Shown here: piece after piece, positions 27,587-64,000 of the stretch
How positions within the stretch are numbered: position 1 is the stretch's first letter
How the letters are laid out: every line of letters starts with the position of its first letter
From: Candidatus Kryptoniota bacterium
Lineage (GTDB): Bacteria; Bacteroidota; Ignavibacteria; Kryptoniales; JAKASW01
NCBI GenBank assembly: GCA_046705025.1
Contig: JBJKQU010000061.1
Coordinates: 20,007-84,006 of the forward strand
Direction: 5' to 3'
DNA: 64,000 nucleotides
Translations under genes and position numbers: made by a program
Notes under the pieces: model-generated
The model's input: only the letters and a program-made list of their open reading frames with translations
The model's database searches: none
What the model was told of the DNA's origin: nothing

Positions 27587-29323
27587 CTAATACTCGATTT
27601 TGAACTTTTCTGCAGCGATTTTATACAGTTTACGCCAAAACAGGCGATTTATCAACACGATGAACACGACAAGGCTGACCACACAGAGCACCATCATCGA
27701 CTGACTGCCAAGCTGATAGGTCGCCTTGTCCAGCAAAGCTCCGATCCCAAGGACAGAATACACCGTCCCGCCGAAGACCACGTACTCCGAAACGATGAGT
27801 GCATTCCATCCCCCACCCCAGCCCGTTATGCTGCCGGTTATGAGTGACGGCATCATCGCCGGGAGTAAAATCTTGAACCAATATTGGTATCTCTTCATAC
27901 CGAAAGCAGTAGCTACCTCTTTCAGATCACCGGGAACATTGCGGACGCCCGCCACGAGGTTGAAAATGATGTACCACTGCATCCCTGTCAATATCAGAGC
28001 GATTGCCGCCAGATTCATTCCTCCAAACGACTTGATAAAAAAGAGGAGGACCACAGGGAAAATTGCGGTGGCCGGGATAGACGCCGCAATTTCAATTACG
28101 GGCATCAGTATGCGGGAGGCCCGTTCGTTTTCGCCGATCCAGACGGAAACGGGGATGGTCCATAAAAGCGAAATCACGAAAGCAACAAGGAGCCTCAGGG
28201 TGGAGAAGAGAATCGCGAGAGGAATACTAATGGCGTCGCTCGGAAGAGGACTCCTAAACAGAGAATACATCCCTACCGAAAACTCAACCGCGAGGTAAAC
28301 AGCGACCGCGACCAGCACAATCTTGAAAGCCTTCCCGGCAAATCCTTTGACACGCACAAGAGCCTCGCGATTGTACCAACCGCGAATTTTGAATGAGATC
28401 CGCCCGACGTTTCGCCGGACAATGCTCGAGTAGACATTACGCAGCCTGTCGGGGATTTCGAGGTGGAATAGTCTGCCTCCGGTATTTCTCCACGCTGAGA
28501 AGATCGCCGGCTGGTTTGCACTGACTGTGGAGACGACAAATTCGTATCTGAATTTCTCTGCCCAGATAGTCAGCGGGCGCCACACGACCAGATGAAGAGC
28601 TGTAATCAAACCCGTCAACGTTACCAGGCCGAGGACAAGATCGGAAACAGATCCCGCCTCTGCAGCGTGAAACAAGTAGCTGCCGATTCCTGCCAGTGAA
28701 TAGTTGGCCTGCCCGACGGCAATGATTTCGCAGGCGGTAAGTATATACCAGCCGCCGGCCCATGACATTATGCTGTTGTAGACAAGCTTTGGAATTGTGG
28801 ATGGAAAATAAAACTTACGGTACCTCAGCCATCCTTTAATATTGAGAGAGTCCAGTGCATCGATCGCTTCGCTCGGCAGAGTGACCATCGTCTCATAGAC
28901 GCCGAAGGCCATGTTCCACGCCTGACTGGTGAAGATCAGAAACACGCTGGCAAGCTCAACTCCAAAATGGCTTTGATGGAACAGGCTTACGAAGAAGTAA
29001 ATTGCCGCGGGAAAGAACCCGAGCACAGGTACGCTTTGCAGGATATCGAGAATGGGAATCAGAATTTTCTCGTATTTCTTGTTGGTGCCTGCAAAGTGCC
29101 CGAAAACGAGGGAAAAAGCCAGCGCCAGTACGTAAGCCGCCAGCATTCGGAGGAAAGAATAGAATGCAAGAAGAGGGAGATGGAAATAGGGGCCCTTCTC
29201 GACTTTCGCAACATGAATTCTTGGCCCGACCCCGAATTTCCACACAAGGATAAAAACGAGGATAAGAAAAATCGCGAGTACAAGGAAGTACTTTTGTTTT
29301 TCCTTCCCCTTCTCACTCACCAC
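27587..29323 (-). CDS. ABC transporter permease, duplicated (two fused BPD-type permease domains)
   Basis: 578-aa polytopic ORF adjacent with zero gap to the ATPase gene. It is twice the size of a usual NitT/TauT permease. Confidence 0.8.
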   Translation of the reverse strand: MVSEKGKEKQKYFLVLAIFLILVFILVWKFGVGPRIHVAKVEKGPYFHLPLLAFYSFLRMLAAYVLALAFSLVFGHFAGTNKKYEKILIPILDILQSVPVLGFFPAAIYFFVSLFHQSHFGVELASVFLIFTSQAWNMAFGVYETMVTLPSEAIDALDSLNIKGWLRYRKFYFPSTIPKLVYNSIMSWAGGWYILTACEIIAVGQANYSLAGIGSYLFHAAEAGSVSDLVLGLVTLTGLITALHLVVWRPLTIWAEKFRYEFVVSTVSANQPAIFSAWRNTGGRLFHLEIPDRLRNVYSSIVRRNVGRISFKIRGWYNREALVRVKGFAGKAFKIVLVAVAVYLAVEFSVGMYSLFRSPLPSDAISIPLAILFSTLRLLVAFVISLLWTIPVSVWIGENERASRILMPVIEIAASIPATAIFPVVLLFFIKSFGGMNLAAIALILTGMQWYIIFNLVAGVRNVPGDLKEVATAFGMKRYQYWFKILLPAMMPSLITGSITGWGGGWNALIVSEYVVFGGTVYSVLGIGALLDKATYQLGSQSMMVLCVVSLVVFIVLINRLFWRKLYKIAAEKFKIEY

Positions 29324-41495: not shown

Positions 41496-42266
41496 CTACT
41501 TCATAGTGAGCGTGATTTTCTGACCGATCCGGGTTTTCAGAGATCTGGAAGCATTTCCGAGATTGATTGCGAGTTCGAGAAGGCCGCTGCTCCCTCTCAC
41601 TCCGACTACCGACTTGCTTTGCGAAGCGGCGTAGGACAGATAGAACCTGGAGACTATTCTCGATCCCACTTTCACGCTTGATCCCTTCTCCAACAGCGAA
41701 TCGCTCCAAAGGAAATTCGTAAGGACGTTGCCGAATCTGTCCTGATAAACAACCATTCCCTCGTTCCTGCCCGGGCTGACGGTTTTGTAAAACCGTTCAA
41801 CGTCCGGATAGACAAACCTCTCTCCGAATTCACTCAGCCGCGTCCCTCGGGACAAGTAGGCCCCTACGGGGGCGAATATGTCTCTGCCGTGAAAAGTGCT
41901 GCTGACATTCTTAAGAAAGAACCTTGGGTTCGTTACGTAATAATATTCCTTTTCATTCGCTTCGGCTGCGACATAATCGAGCAGGCCGTTATCCGGAGCG
42001 ACAAAAGTCTGGCCGTCGATCTTTCCGCAGATGATCTTCCGGTCGGTGCCGACCCCGGGATCGACTACATTGACAAAGACAGCATCCTCCTGAAAGAAGT
42101 TCCGTGATGCCCAAAGGACAAAAGCCGCCTGCTGGACGCTCTGTCTCTCGATTTCGTGCGTCAGGTCGACGATATGGACAACGGGGTTTATCGAAGCGAT
42201 CACTCCTTTCATTACCCCGACGAAATAGTCTTTGTTACCGAAATCAGTGAGGAGGACGATCAGAGA
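41496..42266 (-). CDS. SAM hydrolase / SAM-dependent halogenase family protein (DUF62)
   Basis: The start MSLIVLLTDFGNKDYFVGVMKGVI is the typical DUF62 N-terminus. I therefore trimmed the 24-codon extension in the ORF track. The start abuts the stop of the upstream gene. Confidence 0.75.
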   Translation of the reverse strand, partial: SLIVLLTDFGNKDYFVGVMKGVIASINPVVHIVDLTHEIERQSVQQAAFVLWASRNFFQEDAVFVNVVDPGVGTDRKIICGKIDGQTFVAPDNGLLDYVAAEANEKEYYYVTNPRFFLKNVSSTFHGRDIFAPVGAYLSRGTRLSEFGERFVYPDVERFYKTVSPGRNEGMVVYQDRFGNVLTNFLWSDSLLEKGSSVKVGSRIVSRFYLSYAASQSKSVVGVRGSSGLLELAINLGNASRSLKTRIGQKITLTMK

Positions 42267-56987: not shown

Positions 56988-57679
56988 TTGACCGAATTGT
57001 GATGGATCTTCGAACTATGGAAAAACCTCAGCTTCTCCATTCGATGTTCTCTCCCCTGAACAAGGCGCACTATGTTTGCGCGGTGGTTGTATATCAGAAA
57101 CGCGGAAATAAAAATGCTGAAGAAAATCATCGAATGGTAATACTTCATGCCGACATCAAAAACGTTCGCACGTACGAACATCACCACCGGAAAGGCTATC
57201 GCGGCGCTGACCGATCCGAGCGAAACATAGCGCGAACTGACAACGACTATCGCGAAGACTCCTGCCGCGATCGCCACGTCGACCGGCGCTATTCCAAGGA
57301 GCATCCCCGCCGCGGTTGCGATCCCCTTGCCTCCCTTGAAGCCGGCAAATACGGTCCACGTGTGACCCAGTATCGCGCTCATCCCGGCAATGATCTGAAC
57401 TACCGTGAAATCCGAAAATGGAGTCGCGTTCTCCAAAGGAAAGTGTCCGTAAAATAATCGCGAAATCACGACCGCCGCAAGAAATCCTTTTAGAGCATCT
57501 ATAATAATGACGGCTACTCCAGGCCCCCACCCGAGCACCCGTATTACATTTGTCCCTCCGGCATTGCCGCTGCCGTAGTCTCGTATGTCAATGCCCTTAA
57601 GGGCTTTCGTAACAATAATGCTCGTCGGTATCGAACCGACCATATAACTAATGAGCACCACTACAATAAGAGAAACCAT
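56984..57679 (-). CDS. plsY: glycerol-3-phosphate acyltransferase PlsY
   Basis: 231-aa polytopic ORF with YGSGNAGGTNV and FKGGKG. It overlaps the gpsA start by 4 nt. Confidence 0.9.
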   Translation of the reverse strand: MVSLIVVVLISYMVGSIPTSIIVTKALKGIDIRDYGSGNAGGTNVIRVLGWGPGVAVIIIDALKGFLAAVVISRLFYGHFPLENATPFSDFTVVQIIAGMSAILGHTWTVFAGFKGGKGIATAAGMLLGIAPVDVAIAAGVFAIVVVSSRYVSLGSVSAAIAFPVVMFVRANVFDVGMKYYHSMIFFSIFISAFLIYNHRANIVRLVQGREHRMEKLRFFHSSKIHHNSVK

Positions 57680-57816
57680 TCGACCTCCTTCAAAGCGTTA
57701 CAAGTTAGACCGCTGTGCATTTAGATGCAATGGCGGAAAAGCCGGGAATCCTCACCAACGCCACCTATAGACTCGGGATGCAAGTTGAAGTCATTCGGAA
57801 CAATCTGATACGTATC

Positions 57817-58497
57817 TCACCAAACAAAAGGCAGCAGCCTCCATCTCACTGCTTTCATGTAAGCCTCATATCCGGTTAGTCCCCTTCTCAATACCTGCTC
57901 CTCATTCTTTATCCTTATCACCAGCAAAAGAGGAAGGAAAAGCATCGGTATCAGCGCGTAAAACGATCCGAGAACCAACGGAGAGAACAGGAACAGAATC
58001 GAAGCAGAGAGGTAGAGCGGATGCCTCACGACGGAATAAAGGCCGGTGTTTATCAACACCTGCTTCTCCTGGATCTCAACTGTCCGCGCGGCATATCTGT
58101 TTTGTATCAACACCACGACAAACATCAGGTAGCCTGCAAGGACAGCCGCGACAGAGACCACAACCAGCCATGTCGGTACGTAAGACCAGCTGAATCTGTA
58201 ATCAAGTCCCGGCAATACGAACGCCATGAAGAACGGCACCAGTGAGAGCTTCTGGTAGGTCCGCTGGACAGGTTCCCTTTCTTTTGTCTTCAATCTCTTC
58301 TCGAGAAGCTCCGGCGCCTTCACTGCCAGATATACCAGAAAAGCGAGCATCGGGATGAACAGTGACGCCAGGTAGACCCATGCATTCCAGTACGAGAGTG
58401 TGCCGGCCGGAACGAACAAGAACAAGCCGACAAGGAAAACGGCGAGCAAATATCTGACAACAGTCCTGCTTATCAGGTACGTTTTACCGGTACGCAT
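57817..58497 (-). CDS. isoprenylcysteine carboxyl methyltransferase (ICMT/PEMT) family membrane protein
   Basis: 226-aa polytopic ORF with the C-terminal motif GLYSVVRHPLY...NEEQVL...GYEAY. Confidence 0.7.
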   Translation of the reverse strand: MRTGKTYLISRTVVRYLLAVFLVGLFLFVPAGTLSYWNAWVYLASLFIPMLAFLVYLAVKAPELLEKRLKTKEREPVQRTYQKLSLVPFFMAFVLPGLDYRFSWSYVPTWLVVVSVAAVLAGYLMFVVVLIQNRYAARTVEIQEKQVLINTGLYSVVRHPLYLSASILFLFSPLVLGSFYALIPMLFLPLLLVIRIKNEEQVLRRGLTGYEAYMKAVRWRLLPFVW

Positions 58498-58603
58498 CAG
58501 TTTTCGCCCTCCACAACTGCTTTGAAGATGGATAACGCGCAGAAGCCCGCTGCCTCAGCCCGTCAACAGTGTGCTACGTGTCCTGATGAGCGATAATCGC
58601 CCT

Positions 58604-59302
58604 TTACGCGCTTGCCAGCTGGAAGAATTTCCTGGCGAGAAGGATGTCCCACAGCACCAACGGTACGAGCGAGCCGATCGCAAAGTACATCCCGACTACT
58701 GCCACAGTCGGGGGCACGAGAGACATGATGCCGAGAACAATACCTATCCAGGCCGTCACCTTCCCGAAAATGGTGCTCCGAAGCATGACTATGCCTATAA
58801 GCAGAAAAGCGATCCCCTCAGCGACATAGCCGACATTGAAGGCGGTCCCCTGCCAGGTAACGAGCATTGCCTGTCCAGCGGCCAGAAGAATCGCCCTCTC
58901 CCCTTCCGTCACCGCAGCTGCATACCGGTCGCTCAGCGACATCATCTCGAATGCGACTGTCGAGCTGAAATAAGTTATCATTCCCGTCAATCCAAGCGCC
59001 AGGCTGACCGTCATCAGTGACAAATCAACTCGTCTGAGCACGACGTAGAGACCAATCAGAATGATCCCTACGAATACCTGGTCGACAATCAACAGGAGGT
59101 CCATGTCAAGTAAACCTACAAGCTTGCTGGTCTGAAAGAGCCCGAACCAGCCCACGGTAGTACCCGGCAAGGGCCAAATCGTGAAGACGGCTAGTTGCAC
59201 GACCATGAACGCAACCATAACGAGCGCAACTGAGCCCGCAATACGGAACAGGTTCCGCCAGCCTCCACTCTCGACCTCAGATAATTCGGTTATTGCCTCC
59301 AT
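58604..59302 (-). CDS. polytopic membrane protein (possibly DUF4386-like)
   Basis: I chose the ATG at 59302 because AAGGAG lies 6-11 nt upstream. The protein has 6-7 hydrophobic helices. The family call is weak. Confidence 0.4.
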   Translation of the reverse strand: MEAITELSEVESGGWRNLFRIAGSVALVMVAFMVVQLAVFTIWPLPGTTVGWFGLFQTSKLVGLLDMDLLLIVDQVFVGIILIGLYVVLRRVDLSLMTVSLALGLTGMITYFSSTVAFEMMSLSDRYAAAVTEGERAILLAAGQAMLVTWQGTAFNVGYVAEGIAFLLIGIVMLRSTIFGKVTAWIGIVLGIMSLVPPTVAVVGMYFAIGSLVPLVLWDILLARKFFQLASA

Positions 59303-59556
59303 AGTGACTCTCCTTCTCAATACGTTTGAACGGTTTGATTAGTGAGCCCTCATAATGGATATGCCACCAGTACTCGCATGCCAAAGAATATATAGCCAAA
59401 CAATGTGAAGCGCAAAACCCGCCCGGATTGGAAATGTGCCTTCCTCCAGGCCTTACCTGGCTGGCCGGTTCCTTAACACTCACTTGGTTGGTGGATTCTT
59501 AGTGCAGCCAAAGGTGTTGCTTTGAATGGCCTTCCCACCTATTATCTACTGAAAAA

Positions 59557-59889
59557 ATGCTGACCGTCGCCATAGTGCTTTTTACGTTTGCCGTTCTGAT
59601 AGGGGTAACCTTGCTTACCACTTTTTTCCTCGACGGAAAGACGCCTCGCCGCATCGCCCGCACTCACGGAGTGATTGCAGTGGCCGCGCTCACTCTACTG
59701 GTCGTTTCTGTCGCGGTGAGCGGGGCGGCAGCACCCGTAGCCGGTATGGTGGTCATGATTCTCGCGGCTTTGGGCGGAGCCACCCTTTTCAGAATGGGAC
59801 AGAAGAACATGGCATTTCCCAGGTGGCTTCCTGTCTTGCACGGCTTCGTCGCGGCCATTGGCTTTCTCATGCTGCTCATATATCTCTGA
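59557..59889 (+). CDS. small membrane protein (4 predicted TM helices), unknown function
   Basis: 110-aa ORF that is almost entirely hydrophobic. I recognise no family. Confidence 0.45.
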   Translation: MLTVAIVLFTFAVLIGVTLLTTFFLDGKTPRRIARTHGVIAVAALTLLVVSVAVSGAAAPVAGMVVMILAALGGATLFRMGQKNMAFPRWLPVLHGFVAAIGFLMLLIYL

Positions 59890-59907
59890 AGCATCCGGTG
59901 GCATCTT

Positions 59908-60315
59908 TCATTTGCTGTTCGGAAGGCCGCGGCTTTCTTCAGCATCTAAAGCCGTTTCCCATCCATCGTAGTCTCCACCGAATTTGCGGGCCAACAGCTC
60001 GAAAGTTATCCTGAACGAAGTCAGTTCACCAACTCGTGGAACAATGTCCTTTGTGGCCAGACAAAGCCAGCTTGTACTAGAAACGGCTTTCGTGCATTCT
60101 ACTGAAAAACCCAGTCCTTTCAGCTCGCCTCTTGCTTCCAGGGCGGAGCTCCTGGACGGTAAATACAGATAGAAACTGATCGCTCTCGGTCTGGTCAGAT
60201 CAGCGCTGCTCTTACTCAACAAGTCCAGAACAGCTTGATCGGGATTCTTCACACGGAGATCTTTCTTCGGCTTATCCGAAAGTCTCCTGCTATGACTCGG
60301 TTTGCTATTTCGCAT
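59908..60315 (-). CDS. RraB-like (regulator of ribonuclease activity B family) protein
   Basis: The ATG at 60315 is preceded by AAGGAGGG. The C-terminal FGGDYDGWET and the block PRAISFYLYLPS...A......L...GF resemble RraB/DUF1260. The ORF-track N-terminal extension is trimmed. Confidence 0.5.
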   Translation of the reverse strand: MRNSKPSHSRRLSDKPKKDLRVKNPDQAVLDLLSKSSADLTRPRAISFYLYLPSRSSALEARGELKGLGFSVECTKAVSSTSWLCLATKDIVPRVGELTSFRITFELLARKFGGDYDGWETALDAEESRGLPNSK

Positions 60316-60373
60316 GCCCTTTTCCCTCCTTAGCCCCGTACCCGCTCCACGCCGGGGTTCTACCGCCGGAGCC

Positions 60374-60931
60374 TTATTTTGCGGATTCGTAGTAGAATAA
60401 CACATTTCCCGATTTGAAACATTCGGCTCTCAAGAACTTCAGCTCCAGCTTCCTGCCTATTCCCGCAAACGGTTGTCTTGCAGTGCCTAACACGACAGGA
60501 CACACCATCATCCGGCACTCATCGATCAGGCCCTGAGAGATCAGACTGCCGGCCAGAATGCAGTTTCCGAACATCCCTATCTCCTTTCCCTATTGCCGCT
60601 TAACCTTTAGCACCTCCTCATCGGCATTCCCTTTAACGAGCCGGGTCTAGTTCCATTCCACCTTGTCCAGAGTCCTTGAGAAGACGATTTTCGCAACCGA
60701 GTTCATCAAACCGGCGACTACCGGGTCGTTTTTGATCGCTTCCGGCGTCGGCCAGTAACCTGCCATCAGCTCGTAAGTTGCCCTTCTGAACAACAAGGTG
60801 CCGGTTTCATTCAACTGTCCGATTGCACATTCGTTGAACTCGTCGTCGACGTTATGCCAGATGATATCGTGGTCGGGTCCTTCGAAGAAGCCATCGACCG
60901 TTATCATGTCGAACAGGAAAACCTTCCGCAT
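60374..60931 (-). pseudogene. RibD_C/dihydrofolate-reductase-family gene interrupted by two in-frame TAG codons (tandem paralog of 60936-61493)
   Basis: ORFs 60647..61000 and 60374..60574 are in the same frame. The continuous reading is ...KVEWN*TRLVKGNADEEVLKVKRQ*GKEIGMFGNCILAGS..., with TAG at 60649-60647 and 60592-60590. It spans 185 codons and is collinear without indels with the 185-aa neighbour. Confidence 0.7.
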
Positions 60932-60935
60932 TCTT

Positions 60936-61493
60936 CTACTCTCTTTCCTTCTCGTAATGAAGTGCCACCATGCCCGACTTGAATGTTCTCGTCTCAACAA
61001 GTGTCAGGTTAATTCTGTCGGTCAAACCTTCAAACAGCCGTCTTCCTTTTCCGACGACGACGGGGTGCACCACCAGCCAATACTCGTCGATCAATCCGGC
61101 TTTCATCAGCTGACGGATAACGCTTATCCCGCCGATTGACAGATCTTTGCCGTCTTGTTGTTTCAACTTTCTGACGGCCTCAACGATGTCGTCGCGGATC
61201 AGAGTGGTGTTGTTCCAGTCGGCGCTCCCGAGTGTTCTAGAGAATACCATTTTTGGTATGGCGTTGAACTTAACTGCAAATTCGCGCACGCTCTTTGTTG
61301 TAGAAGGATCATTTGAAATTTTGGGCCAGGCGTGCGCCATCAGCTCGTACGTCACCCGCCCGAAGAGTGCGATGCCGGTGTTGTCGAGCAGCCCGCTGAA
61401 GAACTCGTGATGCTCATCGTCTGGGGCGACGGCGACCGTGTGGTCGGCGAAGCCGTCGAGAGATACATTTATTGCTAAGACTAGTTTTCTCAT
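60936..61493 (-). CDS. dihydrofolate reductase family protein (RibD C-terminal domain, YwjB-like)
   Basis: 185-aa ORF with MRKLVLAINVSLDGF, LFGRVTYELM, VFSRTL and GLIDEYWLVVHPVVVGKGRRLF. Confidence 0.85.
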   Translation of the reverse strand: MRKLVLAINVSLDGFADHTVAVAPDDEHHEFFSGLLDNTGIALFGRVTYELMAHAWPKISNDPSTTKSVREFAVKFNAIPKMVFSRTLGSADWNNTTLIRDDIVEAVRKLKQQDGKDLSIGGISVIRQLMKAGLIDEYWLVVHPVVVGKGRRLFEGLTDRINLTLVETRTFKSGMVALHYEKERE

Positions 61494-61511
61494 TTGTCGA
61501 TCCTTTCTGGA

Positions 61512-61943
61512 TCACTTTTGTTTCGGATACGTGTAGTTGATCATCCACCTGGTTCCATACTTATCGGTAAACATGCCGAAGTAGGCTCCCCAGAACTCAT
61601 CATGGATAGGCGTCTCAATTTTACCGTCAACGGAAAGTTTGTCGTACAATCTTTTCGCTTCGTCCTTGCTGTCGGCTTCAATCGAGATATTATAATTATT
61701 GCCGAACGTTAATTGTTGTCCCATGGATTCGAGCGCGTCGGTACCCATAAGCACGTTTCCCTTTCCAATCGGCAAAGCGACGTGCATGATTTTCTCTTTT
61801 TCCTTTGCTGGTACTCTGTCCGCGACAGGAGTCTCACCGAATCGCTGTATCGCGGTGAACTCCCCGCCGAAAACGGACTTGTAACAGTTGAACGCTTCCT
61901 CGGTGGTGCCGGGAAGATTTATGTACGGATTCATTGTGGCCAT
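61512..61943 (-). CDS. VOC (glyoxalase/PhnB-like) family protein
   Basis: 143-aa ORF with the pattern NPYINL.G...EAF.FYKSVFGGEF...MH..L.....LMG.D...........F.I....D..E....Y..L, typical of PhnB-like VOC proteins. Confidence 0.85.
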   Translation of the reverse strand: MATMNPYINLPGTTEEAFNCYKSVFGGEFTAIQRFGETPVADRVPAKEKEKIMHVALPIGKGNVLMGTDALESMGQQLTFGNNYNISIEADSKDEAKRLYDKLSVDGKIETPIHDEFWGAYFGMFTDKYGTRWMINYTYPKQK

Positions 61944-61979
61944 CTTTCTAATACCTCCTATTTTAACTAATCATGCCTT

Positions 61980-62220
61980 TTCGAAATACTAAATTCGAAA
62001 TCCTAAACTCTAAATGCCGCCTTGTCCGAAGGACGCCTTCGGCGCGGTATCCCGACACATAAATATTTTTGACGGGACAAATCCCAAATTCAAAACTCAA
62101 AACGTAAAAACGAAGCCGGCTGCATTTAGAATTTGTGGCGCTCAACTTCCAATAGTACGTATATGCGCCATGGCACAGGGCGCTCATTTAGAATTTAGAG
62201 TTTAGTGCTTAGAATTTTCT
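61980..62220. repeat. intergenic inverted-heptamer repeat element, copy A (left CTAAA-heptamer arm, copy-specific insert with GC hairpin, A-rich spacer, GC palindromic core, right TTTAG-heptamer arm)
   Basis: The left arm is TTCGAAA TACTAAA TTCGAAA TCCTAAA CTCTAAA (61980-62014). The right arm is TTTAGAA TTTAGAG TTTAGTG CTTAGAA (62187-62214). Segment 62129-62220 aligns gap-free to 63379-63470 with about 80/92 identities by my manual count. Confidence 0.8.
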
Positions 62221-62240
62221 CCCTGGTCTCTAGGCCCATT

Positions 62241-62735
62241 TCATTTGCCATCAAACGCCTTTTCCAGCGCGGCGATATCGAACTTCTTCATCTTCAGAAA
62301 AGCTTCAGTCACTCGCTCGACCTTCTTCGGGTCTTTGTCTTTCTGCATTTTTCTCAGGATCGTTGGGACTATCTGCCATGAAATCCCGTACTTGTCCTTG
62401 AGCCATCCGCACTGTTCGGCTTTCGGATCGGCGGACAGTTTCCCCCAGTAGTAATCGATCTCCTCCTGTGTTTCACACGCCACGGCGAAGGAAATAGATT
62501 CGTTGAACTTGAAGAATGGCCCTGCGCTCATGAACGTAAATTCCTGGCCGAGAAGCTCGACGGTAACGATCTCTACGGTTCCAGATGGCGTGTTGGGAAG
62601 AGTTCTCGATTCTTTGATCTTCGATCCTTTTTCGCCAGAGGTGGATCCACCTCCGGCGGAGAACACGGAAATGTAGAACTTCGCCGCTTCAGCAGCTTCT
62701 TTGTCGAACCACAGGAACGGTGTTATCGATTTCAT
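62241..62735 (-). CDS. VOC family protein (PhnB / 3-demethylubiquinone-9 3-methyltransferase-domain type)
   Basis: The start at MKSITPFLWFDKEAAEAAKFYISVF is the typical N-terminus, with AAGGAGG upstream. The protein is 164 aa with C-terminal CGWLKDKYGISWQIVP. The ORF-track 24-codon extension is repeat-derived and trimmed. Confidence 0.85.
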   Translation of the reverse strand: MKSITPFLWFDKEAAEAAKFYISVFSAGGGSTSGEKGSKIKESRTLPNTPSGTVEIVTVELLGQEFTFMSAGPFFKFNESISFAVACETQEEIDYYWGKLSADPKAEQCGWLKDKYGISWQIVPTILRKMQKDKDPKKVERVTEAFLKMKKFDIAALEKAFDGK

Positions 62736-62773
62736 AGCAACCTCCTTTATCATCAATCCGAGAAACTGTTTCC

Positions 62774-62820
62774 TTTGAAACTCCAACCGCGAAATCCTAA
62801 ACTCCAAACGAATTCAAAAC
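62774..62820. repeat. degenerate partial copy (left-arm heptamers only) of the repeat element, copy C
   Basis: TTTGAAA CTCCAAC CGCGAAA TCCTAAA CTCCAAA followed by an A-rich AATTCAAAAC. It shares CGAAATCCTAAACTC with copies A and B. Confidence 0.5.
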
Positions 62821-62839
62821 GTCGGGGTACCTGCGATTC

Positions 62840-63250
62840 TCAACCTCTTTTTGATTTTGAACGTCGCTGCTCGCTTTCATCAATCATCGCGCTCAGATCC
62901 GCAGCCGGCCTGATCTCCCAGCTTCCTCCTCCTCTACCTAGGGCAAGGGAAGGATGATTCGACATCAACTGAATCGCATGGTTCAGGTCGTCGGCCCCTA
63001 ATATCATGATCCCGCCGATTTGCTCTTTTGTCTCCGCAAACGGGCCGTCGATCACGGAGACTCTTCCGTTCTGGATCCGCAAAGTAGCCGCATTCGTTCC
63101 CGGTTGAAGGGCCTCGCCGCCGGCATAGTGGCCGGTTCTTTTCAACGCCTCGTCGTACGTAAAACATTTATCCACGAAATTGTTCCGTTCGATCTCGGAG
63201 AAGTTCGCGAATATGTCTTCGTTCATGTATCCAAGACAAATGTATTTCAT
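62840..63250 (-). CDS. YciI family protein
   Basis: The start at MKYICLGYM has AGGAGA upstream. The protein is 136 aa with the DGPFAETKEQIGG core. The ORF-track extension is trimmed. Confidence 0.85.
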   Translation of the reverse strand: MKYICLGYMNEDIFANFSEIERNNFVDKCFTYDEALKRTGHYAGGEALQPGTNAATLRIQNGRVSVIDGPFAETKEQIGGIMILGADDLNHAIQLMSNHPSLALGRGGGSWEIRPAADLSAMIDESEQRRSKSKRG

Positions 63251-63280
63251 TTCAGTCTCCTGTTGTGTTCCACTCAACGT

Positions 63281-63470
63281 GTGAAACTCTAAATCCGAAA
63301 TCCTAAACTCTAAACAATATCAAAAATCAAAACCAAAAACTTCAAAACTGCTTTCGAGATTTTCAGAATTTGTATTTTGAATTTGTGGCGCTCTACTGTT
63401 AAAACTGTGTATATGCGCCATGGCGCACAGCGCTCATTTAGAATTTAGGGTTTAGTGCTTAGAATTTTCT
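63281..63470. repeat. intergenic inverted-heptamer repeat element, copy B
   Basis: The left arm is CTCTAAA TCCGAAA TCCTAAA CTCTAAA (63287-63314), followed by a 7-nt phased A-run spacer. The core contains the perfect palindrome GCGCCATGGCGC (63415-63426). The right arm is TTTAGAA TTTAGGG TTTAGTG CTTAGAA (63437-63464). Confidence 0.8.
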
Positions 63471-63918
63471 TCCGGTGTTTCTCAATCGCTTCTTGTACCA
63501 CCTTACTCTCTCCTGCTTCTCGGACCTCAGGAGGCATCTCGGACCAATCGAATATTTGCCGAACTTCGATCGTGGCGCCGGAATCGACTGTCACAGCCGG
63601 ACAACGCTTCGCCCATTCGACGGCTTCTTCCTTCGACTTCACATCGATCAGCCAGTAACCGCCGACCACTTCTTTCGCTTCGACGAACGGGCCATCCGTT
63701 ACAGTCGTCTTCCCGTTCTTGAATGTGACCCTTGCCCCCATCGTCAGCGGATGAAGCCCGTCCAACGAAACGAGTATTCCGGCTTTGGCCATTTCCTCGT
63801 TCTACTTCATCATCTCGGCGACGGCCTCCTTCGGCGGCGCGAAATTCTCATCCGCTTTCTGCTTCGACGACGAATTCGGCTGATACTCCGGCGGAATCAT
63901 AAATATCATGTATTTCAT
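63445..63918 (-). pseudogene. YciI family gene with a single in-frame TAG at codon 39 (or a read-through/recoded gene). A 115-aa ORF restarts 3 codons later.
   Basis: My manual translation starts from the ATG at 63918, with AGGAGG 8 nt upstream. It reads MKYMIFMIPPEYQPNSSSKQKADENFAPPKEAVAEMMK*NEEMAKAGILVSLDG..., and the TAG lies at 63804-63802. It continues in frame into ORF 63445..63792 with DGPFVEAKEVVGGYWLIDVKSKEEAVEWAKRCP. Confidence 0.65.
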
Positions 63919-64000
63919 TTCAAACCTCCTCTTGTTTTCTAAGTAGTCGTTTGACAACCGGCGAAATTGACAACGTCGCAGAAAAACATTCCTGACCCGG

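Follow-up and report, generated by a model that had tools for sequence, protein, structure and literature searches.

The window analysed here, that is, the whole 64-kb stretch of DNA, carries a cluster of small genes that all lie on the same strand, in the order YciI, YciI, PhnB-like (3-dmu-9_3-mt), glyoxalase, RibD_C and RibD_C, followed by an RraB-like gene. The first gene of the cluster is disrupted. It occupies 63445..63918 on the minus strand and comprises 157 codons of a YciI/DGPF-family frame, recognized from its translation and by Pfam YCII, which is broken at codon 39 by an in-frame TAG (63802..63804, minus strand). The frame reads MKYMIFMIPPEYQ...AVAEMMK-TAG-NEEMAKAG...TDGPFVEAKEVVGGYW... 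on the minus strand; it opens with an ATG at 63918-63916, preceded at a 6-nt spacer by a Shine-Dalgarno-like AGGAGG (63925..63930, minus strand), and after the TAG it runs without a further stop until a TAA at 63447-63445. A preliminary description of this DNA had reported the AGGAGG and the ATG at 63918 that open a YciI N-terminus, the TAG at 63804-63802 in the context EMMK-TAG-NEEMAKAG, and a frame that stays open through the DGPF core. All three hold: AGGAGG is read directly at 63930-63925, the codon scan returns the TAG in that context, and TDGPFVEAKEVVGGYW is retained upstream of the terminal TAA.

Once the stop is masked, a Pfam search of the product returns YCII (PF03795) with E = 3.2e-18 and 66.4 bits (cut-off 24), and the match, which aligns protein residues 12-125 with profile positions 9-94 of 95, crosses the TAG. 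The YciI core, with the DGPF motif, GGY/W and the family-invariant positions, is kept, as judged from the presence of TDGPFVEAKEVVGGYW and from a single non-stop deviation in 60 columns conserved at 95% or more, and the nearest solved structure by sequence is PA1349 (1s7i; E = 2.3e-11). On the strength of these sequence matches, the disrupted gene can be assigned to the YCII-related/DGPF family (PF03795). Nearly the whole YciI gene is also covered by an antisense ORF of 155 codons (63475-63942, plus strand), for which sense-strand codon bias is the most likely origin.

The same gene order is found on the Bacteroidetes chromosome OY969815 (L007), where the six genes are without stops, and partial versions of the cluster are present in the relatives L001, L003, L004 and L005. 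In L007 the glyoxalase ortholog (L007:11572-11999) is returned by tblastn as two overlapping pieces, covering query residues 1-62 and 48-143; this split looks like a frameshift and is possibly a long-read assembly error in OY969815. Homologs of the YciI product with 58% identity also occur on contigs labelled Candidatus Methanoperedens and Micrarchaeia (both archaea) and Nitrospiria (L011, L048 and L009), a distribution that suggests either extensive horizontal transfer of the subfamily or contaminated bins.

A second gene of the cluster is also broken, a RibD_C ('dihydrofolate reductase family') paralog at 60374..60931 on the minus strand (Pfam RibD_C, E = 1e-12), which holds two in-frame TAGs. 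The preliminary description had pointed out that each disrupted gene has an intact paralog nearby. Such paralogs are present: an intact second YciI-family gene lies at 62840..63250 (minus strand; Pfam YCII, E = 2.6e-16), and an intact RibD_C paralog, which ends in a genuine TAG, at 60936..61493 (minus strand; Pfam RibD_C, E = 1.2e-19, profile positions 1-196 of 197). However, they are only 25% and 43% identical to the disrupted YciI and the disrupted RibD_C gene, respectively, and each has its own ortholog in the relatives, those of the second YciI gene being 72-79% identical in L001, L003 and L007. The intact copies are ancient paralogs and not recent back-up copies.

The intergenic gaps of the island are filled by a MITE-like repeat, with copies at 61983-62223 and 63282-63473 and a partial copy at 62776-62819. 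Its parts are a 103-nt direct repeat at 85% identity and inverted ends of about 25 nt built of CTAAA-type motifs; the repeat also contains a GC-rich palindrome, TGCGCCATGGCGCA, and a 32-nt end block that recurs almost unchanged at 62186-62217 and 63436-63467. The motif GAAATCCTAAACTCTAAA occurs five times, all in 61983-63454, where 0.04 occurrences are expected; in the nearest relative, the corresponding island has it once (L001:12964-12981). Corresponding gaps measure 71, about 155 and 35 nt in L007 and 194, 101 and 297 nt here, and the shorter gaps of L007 suggest that the repeat may have been inserted in the present island. The end of one repeat copy covers the last 29 nt or so of the YciI gene (63445-63473), where the tail KKILSTKP and the stop are encoded. 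Since similar tails terminate homologs (KQTLNTKL in P0243, KETLSSKY in P0007 and RKTLNTEL in P0017), the repeat end may supply the C-terminus and the stop codon in several relatives.

To identify the residue replaced by the TAG, homologs were searched with the YciI product. The search returned 6,593 sequences; among the best 120, the top identity is 88-89%, all but three are full length, and none has a stop at the position of codon 39. Of 21 aligned full-length homologs, 20 carry Tyr opposite the TAG and one carries Phe, within the context MMK-Y-NEE(M/L)AKAG, and in an alignment of 117 homologs this Tyr column is among the 60 that are conserved at 95% or more. At the DNA level, codon 39 of the relatives is TAC in seven, TAT in two and TTC in three, with no stop at any locus at which this codon was read. 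The TAC and TAT codons of the relatives place the TAG one third-position transversion away from the ancestral Tyr codon. These results agree with the earlier claims that family members usually have Tyr at this point and that the TAG is one substitution from TAC or TAT; the alignment against PF03795, proposed there as a check, gives a match that spans the stop, and the homolog alignments place the conserved Tyr at it.

Whether TAG is read as a stop in this organism can be judged from its use as a terminator. Of the 57 ORFs in the window that do not overlap and have at least 140 codons, 24 end in TAA, 22 in TGA and 11 (19%) in TAG; cdsA, which stands outside this count, is also TAG-terminated, and at least 12 complete genes of the window end in TAG. 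The position of these stops fits genuine gene ends. The TAG at 27589 separates a permease that ends at profile position 180 of 184 from an ABC ATPase that starts at profile position 1, and the TAG at 41498 follows a complete SAM_HAT_C domain (84/84) and precedes RibD. TAG likewise coincides with the Pfam profile end in cdsA (262/264), in the gene with the CoA-binding domain (116/116) and in degP, and it closes the intact RibD_C paralog at profile position 196 of 197. The five genes that the preliminary description had named as TAG-ended are all so terminated, four of them at Pfam profile ends. TAG is thus a normal terminator, and within the limits of the window a reassignment of the code is excluded, in line with what had been concluded earlier; a genome-wide reassignment of TAG is contradicted by the 11 of 57 long genes, and by cdsA, that this codon ends at complete profile ends.

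Pyrrolysine-encoding genes (mtmB, mtbB and mttB, with pylTSBCD) resemble the YciI gene in that an in-frame TAG lies inside a conserved ORF. In the methylamine methyltransferase genes that use pyrrolysine, the TAG is conserved among orthologs and belongs to specific enzyme families. The YciI orthologs, in contrast, have a Tyr or Phe codon, the family is an unrelated one, TAG is a frequent terminator, and the window contains neither pyl genes nor any tRNA gene.

The two other internal TAGs of the island are both in the disrupted RibD_C gene, at 60649-60647 and 60592-60590. When coding potential was scored to the left and right of each stop in the six frames, no other disrupted gene was found in the window, and the high-scoring junctions that were checked part two complete, unrelated genes. 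The window is about 90% coding with every gap accounted for, and the sample consists of three stops in two genes. Given the codon usage of the 57 window genes, 49-52% of the one-step nonsense mutations yield TAG; this share is close to one half because AAG, GAG, CAG, TCG and TTG exceed their A-ending partners. With transition/transversion ratios from 1 to 4, three of three stops would be TAG with a probability of 0.11-0.14, or about 1 in 8. The all-TAG pattern is unremarkable and not significant: the earlier observation that every internal stop here is a TAG stands, while the notion of a pattern beyond chance does not.

Nevertheless, a fully kept reading frame past the YciI stop, together with three internal stops that are all TAG, is also what would be seen if the codon were decoded and full-length YciI made, be it by an amber-suppressor tRNA, by pyrrolysine or by context-dependent or conditional readthrough. 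The residues that the three TAGs stand for speak against this, since they are the Tyr of YciI and, in the RibD_C gene, a near-invariant Asn and a variable Pro/Ser/Gln/Glu position, so that no single suppressor amino acid restores all three. For this Asn, the L007 ortholog uses AAC, which is two substitutions from TAG. Furthermore, TAG terminates at least 12 genes of the same window at full profile ends, it stands at codon 39 in no homolog examined, and its threefold occurrence is within the reach of chance; readthrough would also not explain the decay of the RibD_C gene. As for dedicated signals, Rfam gives no match in 57500-64000 at E up to 1, and the 121 nt that begin with the YciI TAG fold no better than shuffled sequences (z = -0.72). 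Systems of amber suppression (supE/supF-type tRNAs) and TAG-recoded phages share with the island the exclusive use of TAG as internal stop; however, the present cluster is chromosomal, syntenic with relatives and not phage-like, its TAGs replace three types of residue, no suppressor tRNA lies in the window, and an all-TAG outcome is expected about once in eight by chance. Taking these points together, we regard decoding of the YciI TAG as very unlikely, and the hint of local or conditional suppression given in the preliminary description is not borne out, with some 50% TAG expected, different residues replaced, a decaying RibD_C gene, no homolog that conserves the TAG and no readthrough signal found. 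A literature search on YciI/DGPF proteins yielded nothing that bears on this question. A methylation or error motif shared by the three sites was considered and rejected, as their contexts, AAG-TAG-AAC, AAC-TAG-ACC and CAA-TAG-GGA, have nothing in common beyond the TAG.

What termination would cost the protein can be estimated from an AlphaFold2 model (mean pLDDT 76) of a homolog with 87% identity. In it, helix alpha-1 spans residues 30-45 with residue 39 midway along it, and helix alpha-2 and five strands follow downstream. According to this model, a stop at codon 39 would leave 38 residues, made up of strand beta-1 and half of helix alpha-1, and over three quarters of the YCII domain would remain unmade.

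Downstream of the stop, a residual ORF of 115 codons (63445..63792, minus strand) begins with an ATG four codons past the TAG, and the public annotation gives the C-terminal part of the YciI gene as a 106-aa protein, P0098, with a TTG start at 63765. The gene could thus be functional in a short form, with termination at the TAG and re-initiation at the ATG at 63792 to give a 115-residue C-terminal protein; this ATG is 9 nt past the TAG and has GAGGAA before it, and P0098 represents a related reading of the same ORF. However, the GAGG is separated from the ATG by only 2 nt, and so short a Shine-Dalgarno spacing would be poor for initiation. In addition, a product of 115 or 106 residues is predicted to miss two parts of the alpha+beta fold, strand beta-1 and almost the entire helix alpha-1, while the best 120 homologs, save the three noted above, retain the full length. 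We consider a functional short form highly improbable.

To compare how far the two broken genes have decayed, we took for each family the columns in which at least 95% of all other members agree and counted the deviations from them. In the YciI gene, 2 of 60 conserved columns deviate, namely the TAG itself and a conservative M5I change, against a mean of 1.0 in the other members. For the RibD_C paralog the count is 8 of 65, higher than in any other of the 121 sequences (mean of the others 0.79, maximum 5); seven of the eight are amino-acid substitutions, among them G49R, G151A and L154P. Its mean identity to the family is 0.617, compared with a median of 0.697, and over its 185 codons there is no indel or frameshift. 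The number of deviations and the lowered family identity show that the RibD_C paralog is an older pseudogene.

The YciI gene gives a dN/dS of 0.073 with the nearest relative, L001, and the intact orthologs range from 0.03 to 0.11 (the comparison leaves out the L007 PhnB rows, whose coordinates were out of frame); as dS is at least 1 and saturated against every relative, the YciI value describes the overall divergence and not the period after the mutation. In a three-way comparison with L001 and L003, the non-synonymous divergence splits into about 0.03 on the YciI lineage and 0.05 and 0.08 on the others, so that the share of the disrupted gene is not raised. Neither the conserved columns nor dN/dS give any sign of relaxed selection in the YciI gene besides the TAG. 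A gene without decay beyond its stop means that the stop is either very recent or not real.

Under the second of these possibilities, the gene is intact in the organism, with Tyr at codon 39, and the TAG arose as an error of sequencing, assembly or consensus calling or was taken by the assembler from a minority strain. An otherwise flawless gene, with one non-stop deviation in 60 conserved columns and the low dN/dS given above, is also what a base-call or consensus error would leave, and the source is a metagenome-assembled genome, represented by an NCBI contig of 88,053 bp, whose nearest relatives are all MAGs. A share of the internal-stop 'pseudogenes' in assemblies are known to be assembly errors (Cooley and Wright 2024, PMC11017572): near-identical genomes differ on average in 8.2% of them, and the share is higher at low coverage. 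With such spurious pseudogenes the YciI gene has in common that one base difference is all that disrupts it, and that the assembly is a draft derived from a metagenome. It differs from them in that the surrounding 64 kb are without further signs of poor assembly, the rest of the window being clean, with broken frames only in YciI and RibD_C, and in that a real pseudogene lies in the neighbourhood. The clearly real RibD_C pseudogene indicates that gene loss in the island is genuine; together with the clean window, it argues moderately against an artefact. Random substitution errors seldom give rise to a stop. Scans of genome and metagenome contigs yielded only relatives at 88% identity or less and no same-species sequence for the YciI allele, the nearest relatives overall having 88-89% protein identity, and exact-product look-ups with the 115-aa ORF, P0098 and the neighbouring glyoxalase returned no match. 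On balance, we consider an artefact or minority allele unlikely, while taking it as a serious alternative.

The reading that we favour, and hold to be probably correct, is that the YciI TAG is a genuine and evolutionarily very recent nonsense mutation, read by the standard code, that inactivates the gene. The relatives have a sense Tyr codon where this genome has a working stop, as in a nonsense pseudogene, and the ordinary nonsense decay that the preliminary description had left as one of its options is supported by the conserved Tyr, the one-step mutational path and the role of TAG as a normal terminator. Two parts of this reading are inferred, namely the presence of the base in the living organism and the loss of function of the truncated product. 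In this scenario, a single third-position change from TAC (or TAT) to TAG at Tyr39, in a bacterium with the standard code, would end translation after 38 residues, with the loss of most of the YCII domain, and YciI would be a fresh pseudogene or a loss-of-function allele caught in the assembly. The gene sits in a dispensable accessory cluster of small stress/detoxification-type genes, in which the RibD_C paralog with its two TAGs has been decaying for longer. Compared with ordinary nonsense pseudogenes, nothing essential differs: a single step from the ancestral codon has put an in-frame stop in place of a conserved residue, the stop is one that the genome normally uses, and the gene is a dispensable accessory one. 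The YciI gene is unusual in being so 'fresh', with no other decay.

A more far-reaching idea is that TAG termination is leaky in this lineage; an amber-suppressor tRNA encoded on the chromosome and a weakened RF1 are conceivable causes. We find this idea barely credible; if it were true, accessory genes broken by TAG, such as YciI, would give some full-length protein and persist undecayed, and an intact frame with an all-TAG pattern would be the signature of tolerated amber codons.

The YciI case matters little beyond annotation. The YciI locus should be annotated as a disrupted gene with an internal stop, and not as a protein of 106 or 115 residues, and the RibD_C neighbour at 60374..60931 as a pseudogene. 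In a genome that prefers G-ending codons, about half of the nonsense mutations are TAG, and a short run of TAG-only stops is no evidence of recoding.
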